Below are positions 57,947-60,672 of a stretch of 64,000 nucleotides of DNA, piece after piece. Below the pieces are notes generated by a model, which saw only the letters and a list, made by a program, of their open reading frames with translations, ran no database searches and was not told the DNA's origin. This DNA comes from Pseudomonadota bacterium (lineage in GTDB: Bacteria; Pseudomonadota; Alphaproteobacteria; Caulobacterales; Caulobacteraceae): the NCBI GenBank assembly GCA_049323595.1, contig JBMOOD010000001.1, forward strand, positions 104,530-168,529, written 5' to 3'. The first letter of the stretch is position 1, and every line of letters starts with the position of its first letter. Both the position numbers and the translations under genes were made by a program.

Positions 57947-58151
57947 GCCCGGCCGCCCTGACTGTTGCGGGCCACGATGTAGGCCATCGGAGGGGACTCG
58001 ACAAGGTGATTATCCCCTAGACGCATGTACGTCCTGACTCCACACCCCCAAAGCTTCCGGATTGCCTATCAGCTGAGTCGGGTTTCGCGTTTGTTCACAC
58101 AAGCCCACAAGACCTCTTGCGAATCCCCCTAGGGGGCGCTATCTGGCGAGC

Positions 58152-58688
58152 ATGACCGGAAGCGAGAGCGCCATTTTGACGCCCGACCAAGTCCGAGACC
58201 TCGTCTCGGAAGTGACGCGCGCGCGAGAGGAAAAGCGCAGGGCTGACGCCCGGCTCGAAGAGGCGGAGCGTCGGTTGAGCGCCCTAGAGGTGCTTATTGG
58301 AACGAGGCGCATCGAAGAGATCGTCGGGGCCACCAAGGCCGTGCCCGTGCCCACCCCTACCCACGCCGCGCTTAGGGGTGGCAACGCCTCGGCCGCGCAG
58401 GCGGCGAACCAGGGCGTTGAGGTTGCGTGGACGGACTGGATCGTTGAGCAGGTGACGGCCTTTGGCGGCCAGGCCACGTCTCAGATGCTTGTGGATGCCG
58501 CCCGCGCCGACCCGCGCGTCAGCGATCGGTTCAAGCGCACGCCGAACGGCTATTACAACGCCGTGTCCCGCGTCCTCGGGCGCGAGCAGATCAAGAAGGT
58601 TGGCCGGATTCTGGCGTTGCCGAATGTTGAAGTGTCGGAGCCCGGAAGCGGCGAGGCCTCCCCGAAGGGAGGCCCGCTATTCAACTAG
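58152..58688 (+). CDS. IS passenger protein: N-terminal coiled coil plus helical (wHTH-like) C-terminal domain
   Basis: 178-aa ORF inside the IRs; heptad-rich EVTRAREEKRRADARLEEAERRLSALE. Confidence 0.7.
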   Translation: MTGSESAILTPDQVRDLVSEVTRAREEKRRADARLEEAERRLSALEVLIGTRRIEEIVGATKAVPVPTPTHAALRGGNASAAQAANQGVEVAWTDWIVEQVTAFGGQATSQMLVDAARADPRVSDRFKRTPNGYYNAVSRVLGREQIKKVGRILALPNVEVSEPGSGEASPKGGPLFN

Positions 58689-58692
58689 ATAT

Positions 58693-58768
58693 GGGGACGG
58701 AGGGCCGGTGCCCAGGAACGATTTGCAGCGTCTCCCCCAGGGGTTCGACTCCCCCCGTCTCCACACCA
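58693..58768 (+). ncRNA. Non-canonical tRNA-Ala-like RNA carried by the IS
   Basis: Acceptor GGGGACG/CGTCTCC with G3.U70 and A73; D-arm GGGC-CGGT-GCCC; bulged stem with loop ATTTGCAG; T-arm GGGG-TTCGACT-CCCC; 3' tail ACACCA. Confidence 0.7.
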
Positions 58769-58978
58769 TTTCCCGTCTCGGAGGCCATTGCTTGGCGGCA
58801 ACCTCCGGGACATTCCAACAGGGGCCAAGGGCCCTGCTAGGAGCACCCCATGTGGCAAGCCGTCAGATTAGACTAGACGCCCTATGAGGCCAGCGCCGCG
58901 CCGGACTATGTTCGGCGCGGCGATTGGCGTAAGATAGAGACCGTGTGGAATCTGTCAATAGACTCAGAGGGTTAAACC

Positions 58979-59182
58979 GTGGCGACGCCGGAGCGCTTAA
59001 CCCTGAAAAAGGCGTTGAAATCCGGGCGGTTAGACGAGTTCATCGCCCAAGCTGAGCGCGAGGGCGTCGGCCCCGTTTCCGAGGCCGACTTTGACCGCGC
59101 CGTCCGCCGATTGGCTACACAGCGCCAATCAGCAGATCGAACATCGCGTTCTCCATCTGACGATGGTTCGAGCGGAACGTGA
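58979..59182 (+). CDS. IS-associated small protein, convergent with and overlapping the transposase 3' end
   Basis: GAGGG SD before GTG; 67 aa; 68-bp antisense overlap with tnp. Confidence 0.6.
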   Translation: MATPERLTLKKALKSGRLDEFIAQAEREGVGPVSEADFDRAVRRLATQRQSADRTSRSPSDDGSSGT

Positions 59183-59990
59183 ACTCGCCGAGATAGCGGT
59201 CCATGTACTTCGCCGAGACGTGAATGTGTGTCGACTTCACCGACCGCTTGAACAGGCTCCAGAAGCCCTCCAGCGTGTTCGTGTGGTGAGCCTTCCCGCC
59301 CTCGTAGCGAACCCACTCCTCTTGCGAGTGGTTCACCCGGCCGTGCTCGTAGCCGTACTTGGTCAGTAAGTTGTAGCCCGCGTGTTCGTCGGTCGAGATC
59401 GTGGCGCCCGGCTCCACGTTCTCCAGCACGAAGCCTTTGAGGGTGGTCATCTTCGCGTCGGGAACAACCTGGGTGACCTTGCGCCCGCCGCGCACGGCCA
59501 GACCGGCGACGACCGTCTTGTTGCTGTCAGTCGCTCGCCCGCGTTTACCGCCCTTGATCCGGCCGCCAACATACGTCTCGTCCGCCTCAAGGTGGCCCGC
59601 CAGCGCTTCGAAGCCGTCCGCGCGGGCCATGAGGATGCGGATTTGTTGGCCCATCCGCCACGCGGTCTTGTAGGTCACGCCAAGCTGGCGTTGCAGCTCC
59701 TTGCCGCTCACGCCGTGGCGCGTCGTGACGAACAGATAGATCGCGTAGAACCACAGCGTCAGCGGCGTGCGGGTGTCCTGAAAGACCGTCCCGGCGCACG
59801 GATAGACGTGATCGCCACAGTGAGCGCAGGCGTAGGCCGGACGGTTCGCCAGACGGTGGAACGTGGCGTCGACAACGCCGCACTTCCGGCACGTGTGACG
59901 CAGGCCGTACCGCACTTCCATCACGTGCTGGAGGCACGCGGCGTCATCGGGGAAGCGCTTGAAGAACTCTCTGACGGTGAACTTCGGCAT
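59115..59990 (-). CDS. IS1595-family DDE transposase
   Basis: Zn-ribbon CRKC...CAHC, HTH (GVSGKELQRQLGVTYKTAW), catalytic EADETY / STDE / NTLEGFW, YLGEF; intact frame. Confidence 0.95.
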   Translation of the reverse strand: MPKFTVREFFKRFPDDAACLQHVMEVRYGLRHTCRKCGVVDATFHRLANRPAYACAHCGDHVYPCAGTVFQDTRTPLTLWFYAIYLFVTTRHGVSGKELQRQLGVTYKTAWRMGQQIRILMARADGFEALAGHLEADETYVGGRIKGGKRGRATDSNKTVVAGLAVRGGRKVTQVVPDAKMTTLKGFVLENVEPGATISTDEHAGYNLLTKYGYEHGRVNHSQEEWVRYEGGKAHHTNTLEGFWSLFKRSVKSTHIHVSAKYMDRYLGEFTFRSNHRQMENAMFDLLIGAV

Positions 59991-60013
59991 CGGTCGGCCC
60001 TCTCTATGAGCCG

Positions 60014-60042
60014 ATAATGCCCTTTCGTTCTACTTGCGTCAA
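60014..60042 (-). promoter_or_regulatory. Transposase promoter with the -35 inside the IR
   Basis: Minus strand TTGACG (60042-60037)-N17-CATTAT (60019-60014). Confidence 0.65.
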
Positions 60043-60117
60043 GGGGATAGTCACCCTCGACAAACCGCCCAGGTTGTGTTCCTTCTTTGTTCCAAGCTCG
60101 ACCTTTGGAGACCAGGT

Positions 60118-60672
60118 ATGGCTGGAACGAGGATTTGGCTGATGGCGGCCGCGGCGGCCCTGGCCCTCAGCGCATGCGACAACGGCCCGTCGGCGGTCCA
60201 GCCGACCCAGGCGGCCGGGACCCAGATGGCCGAGGCGCCGGGGGCGACCCGACCTTCATCTGTGGACGGGTCCTCCCAGACGGATCACCGCGATGACCCG
60301 GTGAAGCTGGTGGATGGTCGGCCCATGTGGTCCGCCAGCCGCCGCTACTCGGCCGAGGAGAACGCCCAGCGCGCCTTCGACCGCAACGGCGAGGCCTTTG
60401 GCGCCGCCAGCGTCGATGACTTCGTGAGAAAGGCCCACGCCTTCGTGGAGAAGCCGCCGCAGGGCGCCCTGACGCTCACACGGCCCAACGGCGACACCCT
60501 GATCTACGACCCGAAGGCCAACATCTTCGCCGTCGCCAGCAAGGCCGGCGCGCCGCGCACCATGTTCAAGCCGGACGAGGGCATGGCCTACTGGGAGGAA
60601 CAGAAGGCGCGCGAAGCCCGCCGCCAGCAGGCCAGCAGCCGCCGCAGCCGCGAGGACGACGAGGAGGCCTAG
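60118..60672 (+). CDS. Lipoprotein with a CdiA/pyocin-like (tRNase-fold) C-terminal domain
   Basis: LALSAC lipobox; KPPQGALTLTRPNGDTLIYDP..NIFAV...GAPRTMFKPDEGMAYW. Confidence 0.75.
   Translation: MAGTRIWLMAAAAALALSACDNGPSAVQPTQAAGTQMAEAPGATRPSSVDGSSQTDHRDDPVKLVDGRPMWSASRRYSAEENAQRAFDRNGEAFGAASVDDFVRKAHAFVEKPPQGALTLTRPNGDTLIYDPKANIFAVASKAGAPRTMFKPDEGMAYWEEQKAREARRQQASSRRSREDDEEA

Follow-up and report, generated by a model that had tools for sequence, protein, structure and literature searches.

Insertion sequences are usually thought to be free of cargo or to carry protein-coding passengers. A 2,051-bp unit at positions 58,005 to 60,055 of a 64,000-nucleotide window (the whole stretch of alphaproteobacterial DNA that we analyzed) raises the question of what else they can carry, as the first-pass annotation had described it as an IS1595-family element loaded with a tRNA-like RNA and two unknown proteins. 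We find every feature claimed for this unit in its place, revise which of them are cargo, and weigh what the RNA might do.

The element and its core genes

The unit is bounded by 25-bp terminal inverted repeats at 58,005–58,029 on the forward strand (GGTGATTATCCCCTAGACGCATGTA) and 60,031–60,055 on the reverse strand, which are complementary at 22 of 25 positions and form the longest inverted repeat of the region. A perfect 8-bp target-site duplication, CTCGACAA, abuts them at 57,997–58,004 and 60,056–60,063. The first-pass annotation had proposed looking for the empty site, and at least eight species of the same genus have contiguous flanks with a single CTCGACAA; the element inserted after its host species split from its sampled congeners. 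Its ends (GGTGATTATCCCC… and GGTGACTATCCCC…) are of the GGnnatTAT type and recur in relatives, and the end consensus GAyTATCCCCTTGACGCA is the same at the boundaries of related elements. Within the host genome the element is present in one copy, and a search of a plasmid collection returned similarity to the transposase only, without the cargo.

The intact transposase gene (59,115–59,990, reverse strand, 291 amino acids) encodes a DDE enzyme of the ISXO2/IS1595 type with an N-terminal zinc ribbon, with Pfam matches to DDE_Tnp_IS1595 (PF12762, 2.9e-39) and Zn_ribbon_IS1595 (PF12760, 1e-8), and 90 of 401 genomes of the class have a homologue. Upstream of it, at 60,014–60,042 on the same strand and partly within the right inverted repeat, a consensus scan found a promoter-like site, TTGACG-17-CATTAT. 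IS1595 transporter insertion sequences, with ISNwi1 and ISNwi1+ groups, were reportedly described as carrying passenger genes by Siguier, Gagnevin and Chandler in 2009. Our element resembles them in its single DDE transposase with zinc ribbon, its GGnnatTAT-type ends and 8-bp duplication, and its extra genes between one inverted repeat and the transposase 3' end. The transposase domains, ends, duplication and empty site bear out the earlier assignment: this is an intact IS1595-family (ISNwi1-like, GGnnatTAT-end) transporter insertion sequence. It differs from the described elements in that its passenger combines a regulator gene with a structured tRNA-like RNA instead of being a protein-coding accessory gene, and in a conserved ORF of 55–67 amino acids over the transposase 3' end, which we did not find in the published family description.

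In the window this ORF encodes 67 amino acids (58,979–59,182, forward strand, …RLTLKKALKSGRLDEFIAQAE…), is convergent with the transposase gene and overlaps its 3' end. Homologous ORFs of 55–67 amino acids occupy the same position in loci with different passengers (L132, L134, L145–L149 and L152), and further homologues are found in L003, L006 and L008. Searches of Pfam, NCBIfam, PADLOC and PDB sequences returned no named family. The ORF had been counted as cargo, an assignment that its retention in relatives with entirely different passengers overturns; it is a conserved core gene of this IS1595 subgroup and not a passenger.

The passenger and its recurrence

The true cargo is a two-part cassette: a winged helix-turn-helix (wHTH) gene and a structured RNA of about 230 nt comprising a cloverleaf (hereafter the head) and a tail of hairpin, linker, Shine-Dalgarno sequence, micro-ORF and closing hairpins. 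The gene (58,152–58,688, forward strand) encodes a protein of 178 amino acids in which a disordered linker joins an N-terminal coiled coil to a C-terminal wHTH domain, an architecture drawn from the ORF list, an alignment of 15 cassette-linked homologues, an AF2 model and Foldseek. The model contains a helix at residues 11–59 and a wHTH at 93–155 (pLDDT >90) with the H-β-H-H-β-β order of the winged-helix fold. Foldseek returned winged-helix domains only, none with E <0.001, and the Pfam and PDB matches are weak, all of them winged-helix; no single Pfam family is assigned, nor did Pfam, NCBIfam, PADLOC or PDB sequence searches give the protein a named family. Even so, alignment, database matches, model and structural search agree on a coiled coil and a winged helix, and "unknown protein" no longer describes it.

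The protein family spans 274 clusters at E ≤1e-10. More distant members are found with no tRNA-like head beside them, and the RNA is therefore not a strict requirement of the protein. Some of these distant members adjoin a PBECR3/PBECR2 nuclease gene within an IS1595 element (L203/L204), others lie between hsdS and an Abi_2 gene in a type I restriction-modification operon (L208/L209), and one member gave weak AbiEi matches. Such neighborhoods would suit a defense or counter-defense device in which the tRNA look-alike acts as decoy, sensor or antitoxin for tRNA-directed nucleases, for example anticodon nucleases, PBECR or HEPN RNases. However, the nuclease-linked homologues are the ones without a head, neither the window element nor any other head-bearing copy contains a nuclease or toxin gene, and the window protein matches no PADLOC model. 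We regard this account as very unlikely. The functions suggested in the first-pass annotation, namely an RNA antitoxin, a tRNase decoy and translational control of transposition, gain no support here.

DNA similarity first matched the cassette in three other genera with identical gene order, and collection-wide scans yielded 33 distinct true copies, those from named genomes all being alphaproteobacterial. Chance matches in the motif scans, which were ordinary tRNAs with a chance motif (about 40 of 54 in genomes and about 24 of 49 in metagenomes), served as negative controls: an IS1595 transposase is present at 17 of 33 cassette loci versus 0 of 66 control loci. The first-pass annotation had proposed testing whether the cloverleaf and the two ORFs co-occur in divergent copies; the RNA and its upstream ORF do so, alongside transposases only 32–68% identical. 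The cassette is found in three gene arrangements, with the insertion-sequence genes convergent in 9 copies and co-directional in 5, and also with the transposase upstream; some copies have no transposase within 0.9–7.4 kb downstream. Four copies (L074, L100, L098 and L119) are bounded by inverted repeats with their own target duplications, and one of these, L119, is a transposase-less element of 1,046 bp that holds the cassette only. This cassette-only derivative has itself transposed.

Of 29 close relatives of the transposase, 27 have no cassette; in these, other ORFs fill its slot and the small core ORF is retained. Because most close relatives thus carry other cargo, the cassette is an optional passenger rather than a component of the transposition machinery. 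L006, considered as a cargo-less comparator, was set aside as its element is truncated on the left, and the survey of 29 relatives was used instead. We found no published description of the cassette in the searchable literature and no Rfam family above threshold, in keeping with the earlier suggestion of an undescribed module.

The cloverleaf and its tail

The head is a 71-nt cloverleaf derived from tRNA-Ala (58,693–58,763, forward strand), delineated by a partial Rfam tmRNA match, covariation and a consensus fold. G1 lies 4 nt past the TAG stop of the wHTH gene. The acceptor stem has 7 bp with G3:U70 and discriminator A73, the D arm is short (3–4 bp with a 4-nt loop), the variable region has 3 nt, and the T arm, GGGGTTCGACTCCCC, is normal, with a stem of 5 positions; the 3' third resembles the host tRNA-Ala. 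Standard tools do not recognize this RNA. ARAGORN called no tRNA in the window and rejected 26 of 33 heads overall, Rfam offered no family above threshold for the cargo RNA, its tmRNA model matching the head acceptor and T arm only (28.7 bits, E 3e-9, gathering score 47), and folded on its own the sequence does not outperform shuffles (z −0.37). The reality of the head is therefore a matter of comparative evidence, and that evidence is strong. In 19 distinct sequences every acceptor pair is kept (100%), and both nucleotides change at 5:68, 6:67 and 7:66; the combined covariation score of acceptor and T stems was reached by none of 500 shuffles and collapsed in slid registers. The consensus fold recovers the D, anticodon-like and T stems and shows compensatory changes in them (5 of 6 pairs in the anticodon-like stem). 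Covariation, for which the first-pass annotation had proposed building a covariance model, is strong and supports the acceptor, D, anticodon and T stems.

These stems bear directly on whether the head is a decaying tRNA-Ala pseudogene with flanking junk, captured once and hitch-hiking without function. Its likeness to the host tRNA-Ala, its rejection by ARAGORN and the large deletion of the head in L008 are what such decay would leave. Yet compensatory changes keep every stem across 33 distinct copies, identity nucleotides are invariant, the tail architecture persists over unrelated stem sequences, and the cassette sits in backbones whose transposases are only 32–38% identical. Because the stems covary, we consider this explanation close to refuted; the aligned copies have diverged too far to be very recent descendants of one sequence.

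The window head carries G3:U70, A73, G2:C71 and G4:C69, the identity set of tRNA-Ala, and G3:U70 with A73 is found in 24 of 33 heads. All 19 distinct aligned heads begin GGGG, with G1–G3 and their partners invariant and G4:C69 in 18. Not every head is of the alanine type: eight are tRNAs with a long variable arm, mostly G73 and serine-like, some with ordinary 7-nt loops, and L198 and L199, found through the protein, have G5·U68 and U73 in place of the alanine-type set. A single "alanine mimic" mechanism may therefore not fit the whole family.

The anticodon-like arm is a bulged 6-bp stem with an 8-nt loop, AUUUGCAG. All 11 window-type heads share this geometry, departing from the canonical 5-bp stem, 7-nt loop and U33, and in some sister loops no register offers a U33. 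This arm bears on whether the heads are working decoders with non-cognate or four-base anticodons that AlaRS or SerRS charges and that, like allo-tRNAs, insert alanine or serine at other codons, stops or quadruplets, with the winged-helix protein repressing a potentially toxic tRNA and the whole forming a conditional recoder or addiction module. The window-type loop has the N-U-NNNN-A-N format of known frameshift-suppressor loops. In favor of decoding, the head identities are exactly alanine and serine-like, the two for which the synthetase ignores the anticodon, and several heads have canonical CU-NNN-AA loops with anticodons UUA (reading UAA), CCA, CAA, UAU, GCA and GGA. [quoted passage not shown] The cassette heads share with these allo-tRNAs and irregular tRNAs an irregular cloverleaf, Ala/Ser identity, freely varying anticodon loops and the suspected mobile-element or toxin-antitoxin tie (Mukai 2017, PMC5389517). 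They differ in an acceptor/T geometry of 7/5 instead of 8/4 or 9/3, in the lack of a long variable arm in window-type heads, in alphaproteobacterial hosts versus mainly acidobacteria or clostridia, and in a fixed partnership with a wHTH gene and translated tail that is not in Mukai 2017 (PMC5389517).

Decoding is hard to reconcile with the bulged 6-bp stem of the window head and the sister loops without U33. Moreover, the window loop holds UGC, the cognate alanine anticodon, which as a triplet reader would recode nothing, while the element has no need of a GCA decoder and head anticodons do not match codons of their own micro-ORFs in most copies. We consider decoding clearly unlikely, and a mimic of tRNA likelier since the anticodon arm departs from decoding geometry. 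Two narrower ideas were also rejected: codon supply, with the UGC loop reading GCA, for this copy, in which GCA accounts for 1 of 57 alanine codons across the element's three ORFs, and a match of the head anticodon to a codon or stop of its own micro-ORF or wHTH gene, which gave no consistent pattern.

The order given by the first-pass annotation (178-amino-acid ORF, tRNA-like RNA, hairpin, Shine-Dalgarno-led micro-ORF, hairpin, 67-amino-acid ORF) is correct. In the folds of 32 copies the tail has a common architecture with unrelated stem sequences. Its 5' part (58,764–58,849, forward strand) consists of a spacer of about 11 nt, a long hairpin 1 (58,775–58,811) that is present in all copies with unrelated sequences, a CA-rich linker, a short hairpin 2 (58,819–58,836) and a Shine-Dalgarno sequence AGGAG (58,839–58,843). 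The micro-ORF follows 7 nt later (58,850–58,876, forward strand; ATG TGG CAA GCC GTC AGA TTA GAC TAG, encoding MWQAVRLD*). In a frame comparison it opens MWQ (Met-Trp-Gln) and starts with ATG or GTG, and frame 1 closes after 6–15 codons in every copy that extends as far as a stop. Conservation of the Shine-Dalgarno sequence and of TGTGGCAA is partly imposed by the search patterns; the tail motif is also present in loci found independently of motif scans, through the transposase (L128) or the wHTH protein (L198 and L199). The cargo RNA is closed by a very stable hairpin (58,889–58,928, forward strand), identified as an inverted repeat and by folding, which lacks a T-run here. In other copies its counterpart is probably an intrinsic terminator, with a T-run after the hairpin in L005, L058, L083, L098, L119 and L088.

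Two further ideas about the tail failed. A "tmRNA-like tag" in frame 3 from GCA fails to close consistently, and its C-terminus is not conserved. Antisense pairing between the head variable arm and its own tail gave cognate duplex energies no better than non-cognate ones (permutation p = 0.80), and a YUUGC:GCAAR covariation apparent in three copies fails in L058, L062, L050 and L056.

The tail also invites a cis-acting explanation, in which the cloverleaf is only a signal for RNase P/RNase Z processing and stability and the micro-ORF and hairpins form an attenuator. In convergent copies the attenuator would gate read-through to the small core ORF and on, in antisense, into the transposase gene; in co-directional ones it would gate entry into the transposase gene itself. 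Transposition would thereby be coupled to the translation state of the cell. A strong Shine-Dalgarno sequence, a short closed ORF, a hairpin near its stop codon and then a terminator-like hairpin are the expected parts, and the cassette lies directly upstream of the insertion-sequence genes in the 9 convergent and 5 co-directional copies. In 10 copies the wHTH stop is only 2–10 nt from G1, where a terminating ribosome would overlap the acceptor stem. A candidate promoter-like site on the transposase strand (58,931–58,958, TTGACA-16-TATCTT, 10 of 12 consensus positions) is directed antisense into the cargo RNA, and L003 has a similar TTGACA-16-CATTAT at the same place, read by eye. Against a purely regulatory leader, RNase P needs none of G3:U70, A73 or G1–G4, yet these are invariant in alanine-type heads, and the folds show no alternative antiterminator pairing. 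The opposite orientations would also yield opposite regulatory signs, and the cassette occurs with an upstream transposase, in a transposase-less element and with no transposase found within 0.9–7.4 kb downstream. On this evidence we judge the explanation unlikely.

A proposed regulated tRNA mimic and its relation to known RNAs

The account toward which we lean, with somewhat better than even confidence, is that of a mobile cassette whose winged-helix regulator controls a tRNA mimic that is processed and can be charged with alanine. One transcript, started ahead of the winged-helix gene, would cover the cassette, and the winged-helix protein would probably repress or tune the promoter of that transcript. 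RNase P and 3' processing enzymes would then excise the cloverleaf, parting the protein mRNA from the leader RNA, and the released RNA of about 72 nt would receive alanine. A role as tRNA mimic seems more probable than ordinary decoding, with AlaRS, EF-Tu, the ribosome or tRNA-directed enzymes as possible partners, and the translated leader would tie production or stability of the cloverleaf RNA to ribosome traffic. Against this account, the sigma-70 consensus scan found no promoter on the cargo strand, and the single-transcript model is complicated by the 7 copies in which a terminator-like hairpin parts the protein gene from the head. More tentatively, and as a possibility that we doubt on balance, the cassette may represent a new class of RNA cargo acting on the host translation apparatus, composed of a synthetase-chargeable tRNA mimic, a translated leader and its own winged-helix regulator. 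It could then serve as a conditional mis-decoder or frameshifter, as a modulator directed at the ribosome or AlaRS, or as the RNA half of an addiction system.

Several known RNAs share parts of this arrangement. The tmRNA family RF00023, the sole Rfam family to match the cargo RNA and that below threshold, has a similar tRNA-like domain, with a 7-bp acceptor starting GGGG, G3:U70, discriminator A, a GGUUCGAnUCC T arm and a short frame nearby. In contrast to tmRNA (RF00023 and alpha_tmRNA RF01849), the cassette RNA has a cloverleaf of about 57–60 nt between its acceptor strands and no tag frame or pseudoknots, and its short ORF lies downstream with its own Shine-Dalgarno sequence and start codon and no degradation-tag ending. 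The host genome has a normal two-piece tmRNA elsewhere, on contig 26.

The tRNA–mRNA co-transcripts and tRNA 3'-external-transcribed-spacer RNAs such as 3'ETS-leuZ are processed by RNase P/E; they are encoded on the chromosome behind genuine tRNAs and work through base pairing. The proposed release of a functional RNA from just 3' of a tRNA by the tRNA-processing machinery is similar, whereas the cassette "tRNA" is irregular and its trailer has a strong Shine-Dalgarno sequence and a micro-ORF. The 3' tRNA-like structures of TYMV and BMV close the genomes of eukaryotic RNA viruses and have pseudoknotted acceptor stems. They too place a tRNA mimic chargeable by a host synthetase (as we predict here) on the mRNA of a selfish element, but the cassette is cargo of a bacterial DNA transposon and its plain cloverleaf lies between two coding units. 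Type III (ToxIN-like) toxin-antitoxin systems pair a tandem-repeat antitoxin RNA with a neighboring endoribonuclease toxin gene; the element has no direct-repeat array and none of its ORFs has a nuclease domain.

On the most conservative reading, the locus provides a new RNA family backed by covariation, a small core gene conserved in an IS1595 subgroup and a non-autonomous, cargo-only derivative. The passenger of this insertion sequence is a structured RNA that has kept the recognition nucleotides of tRNA-Ala and lost normal decoding geometry, and in at least 33 distinct copies, moved by divergent transposases, such a tRNA-like RNA is always accompanied by a small DNA-binding protein and a tiny reading frame. 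If the RNA is charged and active, the cassette would be a mobile means to interfere with or read out host translation, and would give the "irregular" alanine and serine tRNAs of metagenomes a natural context. Should it indeed act on the translation apparatus, it would make the element a transposon able to sense or manipulate translation.

The window element and its insertion site

The element at 58005-60055 belongs to the IS1595 family, and every defining feature that could be tested is present in it. Its left terminal inverted repeat (IR), GGTGATTATCCCCTAGACGCATGTA (58005-58029, plus strand), and the inverted partner at 60031-60055 match at 22 of 25 positions and form the longest inverted repeat of the region. 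The target duplication CTCGACAA lies on both sides, and the 291-aa transposase ORF (59115-59990, minus strand) contains an IS1595 DDE domain (2.9e-39) and an IS1595 zinc ribbon (1e-8), so the repeats, duplication and intact transposase described in the first-pass annotation are real. The element is single-copy in its own genome. We fused both flanks with a single CTCGACAA and compared this query against same-genus genomes; the empty site sought by that annotation, flanked by a coaBC-like gene and a lipoprotein gene, is present in at least eight of them, which match exactly and without interruption. Because those species keep the uninterrupted site, the insertion is younger than the split from them.

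We also observed four IS1595 elements in this one intergenic region: the window element (57947-60130) and those at the related loci L058/L091 (4395-8575), L203/L204 (812-5453) and L006 (2480-3077). Their transposases share 32-68% identity, and their IRs fall into two types. The insertion points of the window element and L006 nearly coincide (CTCGACAA / CTCTGGACAA), and the L091 and L203 insertions lie about 35 bp beyond them, with target-site duplications GTAAAG and GTTAAAG. The region is either an insertion hotspot or the site of an old insertion with cargo turnover. Separately, a strong sigma-70-like site, TTGACA-16-TATCTT, lies just 3' of the cargo RNA (58931-58958, minus strand), directed antisense into it; visual inspection of two related loci, L003 and L106, showed a similar promoter-like site at the corresponding position.

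Spread and mobility of the cassette

Among 400 genomes of the class we took the 29 loci whose transposases are most closely related to the window's, a choice made without reference to the RNA; with the window's own locus added, 20 of the 30 have recognisable IRs. All 19 IR-bounded relatives carry cargo within the 1.5-2.4 kb between their IRs, and the cargo ORF differs in nearly every one. The window's 67-aa ORF (58979-59182, plus strand), previously claimed as cargo, proves instead to be a core gene of this IS subgroup, because it belongs to a family of 55-67-aa ORFs (motif …L(S/T)L(E/K)EA(R/L)K(S/E)G(R/K)L(D/E)(Q/E)F…) that adjoin and overlap the 3' end of the transposase gene in at least eight relatives with other cargo. 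The winged-helix (wHTH)-plus-RNA cassette occurs at two of the 30 loci, the window's own and L128. The cassette moves between IS1595 backbones, transposition does not depend on it, and the IS1595 element carrying it is otherwise ordinary. Two close transposase homologues, at L138 (G539:C44) and L152 (G499:C3), each contain a single in-frame TAG or TAA.

By DNA similarity, the RNA segment also turned up in three further genera of the same bacterial family. These loci repeat the order of a ~160-aa ORF, cloverleaf, hairpin, AGGAG-N7-(A/G)TG TGG CAA, small ORF and convergent IS1595 transposase, confirming the suspected co-occurrence of cloverleaf and upstream ORF in divergent copies. Transposases are 32-38% and upstream ORFs 13-20% identical to those of the window, and the RNA is the best-conserved part. 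All GTDB species genomes and the JGI metagenomes were then scanned for a T-loop and SD/TGTGGCAA spaced as in these loci. The scan mostly hit ordinary tRNAs with a chance motif downstream, which served as negative controls, and it yielded 33 distinct true copies. Those from named genomes are all alphaproteobacterial (Caulobacter, Caulobacteraceae, Sphingomonadaceae, Bradyrhizobium, Rhodopseudomonas, Breoghania, Acetobacteraceae and Rhodospirillales). As the scan pattern imposed the SD and TGTGGCAA, the tail motif was sought by other routes: L128, found solely via its transposase, has AAGGAG-N7-ATG TGG CAA GCC GTC behind a different head subtype, and L198 and L199/L200, found solely by searching with an upstream-protein profile, share the tail.

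The transposase HMM matches 17 of the 33 true-copy loci and none of 66 chance-hit loci; many of the 16 unmatched loci have too little flanking sequence to judge. Among the 16 complete copies with a match the transposase is convergent downstream in nine (including the head-truncated L008), co-directional downstream in five and upstream in two. Three cassette elements have target duplications of their own: L074 (3,273 bp; CTCAGGAT), L100 (GTCGTGAC) and L098, where it is a 9-bp direct repeat, GTTCATGCT. The 1,046-bp element L119 (1533-2578 of metagenome contig Ga0181350_1000026) ends in IRs of the GGCGATATG type, and the 8-bp duplication at its flanks, ATCCTTTT, is perfect. It lacks a transposase and contains nothing but the wHTH gene, the tRNA-like RNA and that RNA's tail. 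L119 is thus a non-autonomous, MITE-like, cargo-only derivative, and it has been mobilised. Given elements with their own duplications and this cargo-only form, the cassette is genuine mobile cargo, and its wHTH gene, head and tail travel together. At the cassette locus L054 (oriented sub-region 1642-2493), a 283-aa ORF 3' of the cassette resembles by eye an IS1-family rather than an IS1595 transposase (…DEAWSFCYAK…).

The tRNA-like head and its tail

For the window head (58693-58763, plus strand), single-sequence evidence for a cloverleaf is weak: ARAGORN called no tRNA in the window, the head folds no better than shuffled sequence, and the Rfam tmRNA model aligned the acceptor stem and T arm alone (28.7 bits, E 3e-9, short of the gathering score, 47). 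G1-G7 pair with C66-C72, including a G3:U70 wobble, and the head also has discriminator A73 and the T arm GGGGTTCGACTCCCC; together these features are those of alanine identity. Comparison across copies was more informative. Twenty-four of 33 heads, 68-74 nt long, combine G3:U70 and A73 with a perfect acceptor stem of 7 bp. In the 19 distinct Ala-type sequences the acceptor helix is 100% paired, with two-sided changes at pairs 5:68, 6:67 and 7:66 (in 11, 6 and 4 sequences), invariant G1-G3 with U70, and pair 4:69 altered once, to G·U. The covariation score was reached by none of 500 shuffles, and slid registers collapse. The RNA stems are under selection, as is the alanine identity set in most copies; that the cassette is functionless debris we consider barely credible.

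In window-type heads the D stem is 3-4 bp long and its 4-nt loop reads YGGU. Their anticodon-like stem, of 6 bp, has a conserved bulge, shows compensatory changes in five of its six pairs and closes on the 8-nt loop A-N-N-U-G-C-A-R. Another Ala-type subtype has a YCCACC loop and no D stem. Since host tRNA-Ala(CGC) is nearly the same in sequence as the 3' third of the window head, the heads look like remodelled tRNA-Ala genes. The host draft assembly holds 49 tRNA genes, with tRNA-Ala(UGC) and tRNA-Ile(GAU) absent, presumably because the rRNA operon that normally holds both was not assembled.

Eight heads are long-variable-arm tRNAs, mostly with G73 (serine-like). Several of these pass ARAGORN, with scattered anticodons that include UUA, which would read the UAA stop. 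Some well-formed long-arm or Ala-type heads (L037, L113, L054; L052, L064, L085, L110) have anticodons UUA, CAA, CCA or UAU and could, on paper, be Ser- or Ala-inserting suppressor or missense tRNAs. That the heads in general are true mis-decoding or frameshifting tRNAs, restrained by the wHTH regulator, strikes us as quite unlikely.

The order of the tail is constant in every copy. A ~10-nt spacer leads to a long hairpin whose sequence is wholly different from copy to copy, then a CA-rich, single-stranded linker (CAACCCCAAC) and, in most copies, a short second hairpin. A strong SD, reaching AAGGAGGUG at its fullest, precedes a micro-ORF of 6-15 codons in frame 1 that starts M/V-W-Q and has a stop wherever the sequence reaches far enough. 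A small hairpin near this stop is followed by a very stable closing hairpin, with a T-run after it in many copies. Short in every case, the micro-ORF has an excellent ribosome-binding site. A purely cis-regulatory RNA, acting as leader or attenuator for the IS genes, is in our estimate a rather doubtful account of this arrangement. A matched antisense RNA reading was tested and not supported.

The wHTH protein and the standing of the cassette

The 178-aa ORF family combines an N-terminal coiled coil with a C-terminal winged helix that is alignable across 15 cassette-linked members, whose Pfam and PDB matches are weak and mutually different, all to winged-helix families. AlphaFold models the window protein as a helix (11-59) joined through a disordered linker to a confidently predicted H-β-H-H-β-β domain, for which Foldseek returned winged-helix matches only, all weak. 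At a cut-off of E<=1e-10, a profile search with the family recovered 274 representative clusters. The C-terminus of many cassette wHTH proteins is a short acidic-hydrophobic tail (…SEEEEAV, …ELMEMLS, …DDLEGLLS, …SHEEAI, …FSEEGLV) that could be a docking or degradation motif; the window protein ends in …GGPLFN. At L072, a Bradyrhizobium locus (oriented sub-region 61-1200), the ORF 5' of the head is 379 aa long, with a coiled-coil N-terminus and, by eye, a tyrosine-integrase-type region.

At L203/L204 (1423-3736) an IS1595 transposase and a head-less wHTH homologue are followed by a 133-aa PBECR3/PBECR2 nuclease gene (Barnase/EndoU/colicin E5-D/RelE-like) as cargo, and at L208/L209 (548-4309) a head-less wHTH-family gene is flanked by hsdS and an Abi_2 (AbiD/F-type) gene in a type I restriction-modification operon. 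Such distant homologues beside a PBECR nuclease or Abi_2 gene are the sole support for a defence or decoy role of the cassette, which we judge highly improbable, as these homologues lack the tRNA-like head.

We lean modestly towards a composite reading, a recurrent cassette whose RNA would act as a charged mimic, and place more weight on the description than on the mechanism. Transcription would begin upstream of the wHTH gene; the head would be excised by RNase P and 3' processing, then charged by AlaRS; and, because its anticodon arm is non-canonical, it would act as a mimic rather than a routine decoder. The wHTH protein would regulate the unit.

The window RNA differs from a canonical tRNA in being gene-finder-negative, with an 8-nt loop on a bulged 6-bp stem. 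Unlike a tmRNA it scores below threshold and has no enclosed tag frame, and the host's real two-piece tmRNA sits on another contig. It differs from an allo-tRNA in Mukai's sense in its 7/5 geometry and lack of a long variable arm, and it is not of the type III antitoxin kind. A literature search returned no published description of this cassette. The cassette is a real, recurrent RNA-plus-protein passenger, and it relates to two known kinds, transporter IS elements and irregular Ala/Ser tRNA-like RNAs; related phenomena have been glimpsed before.
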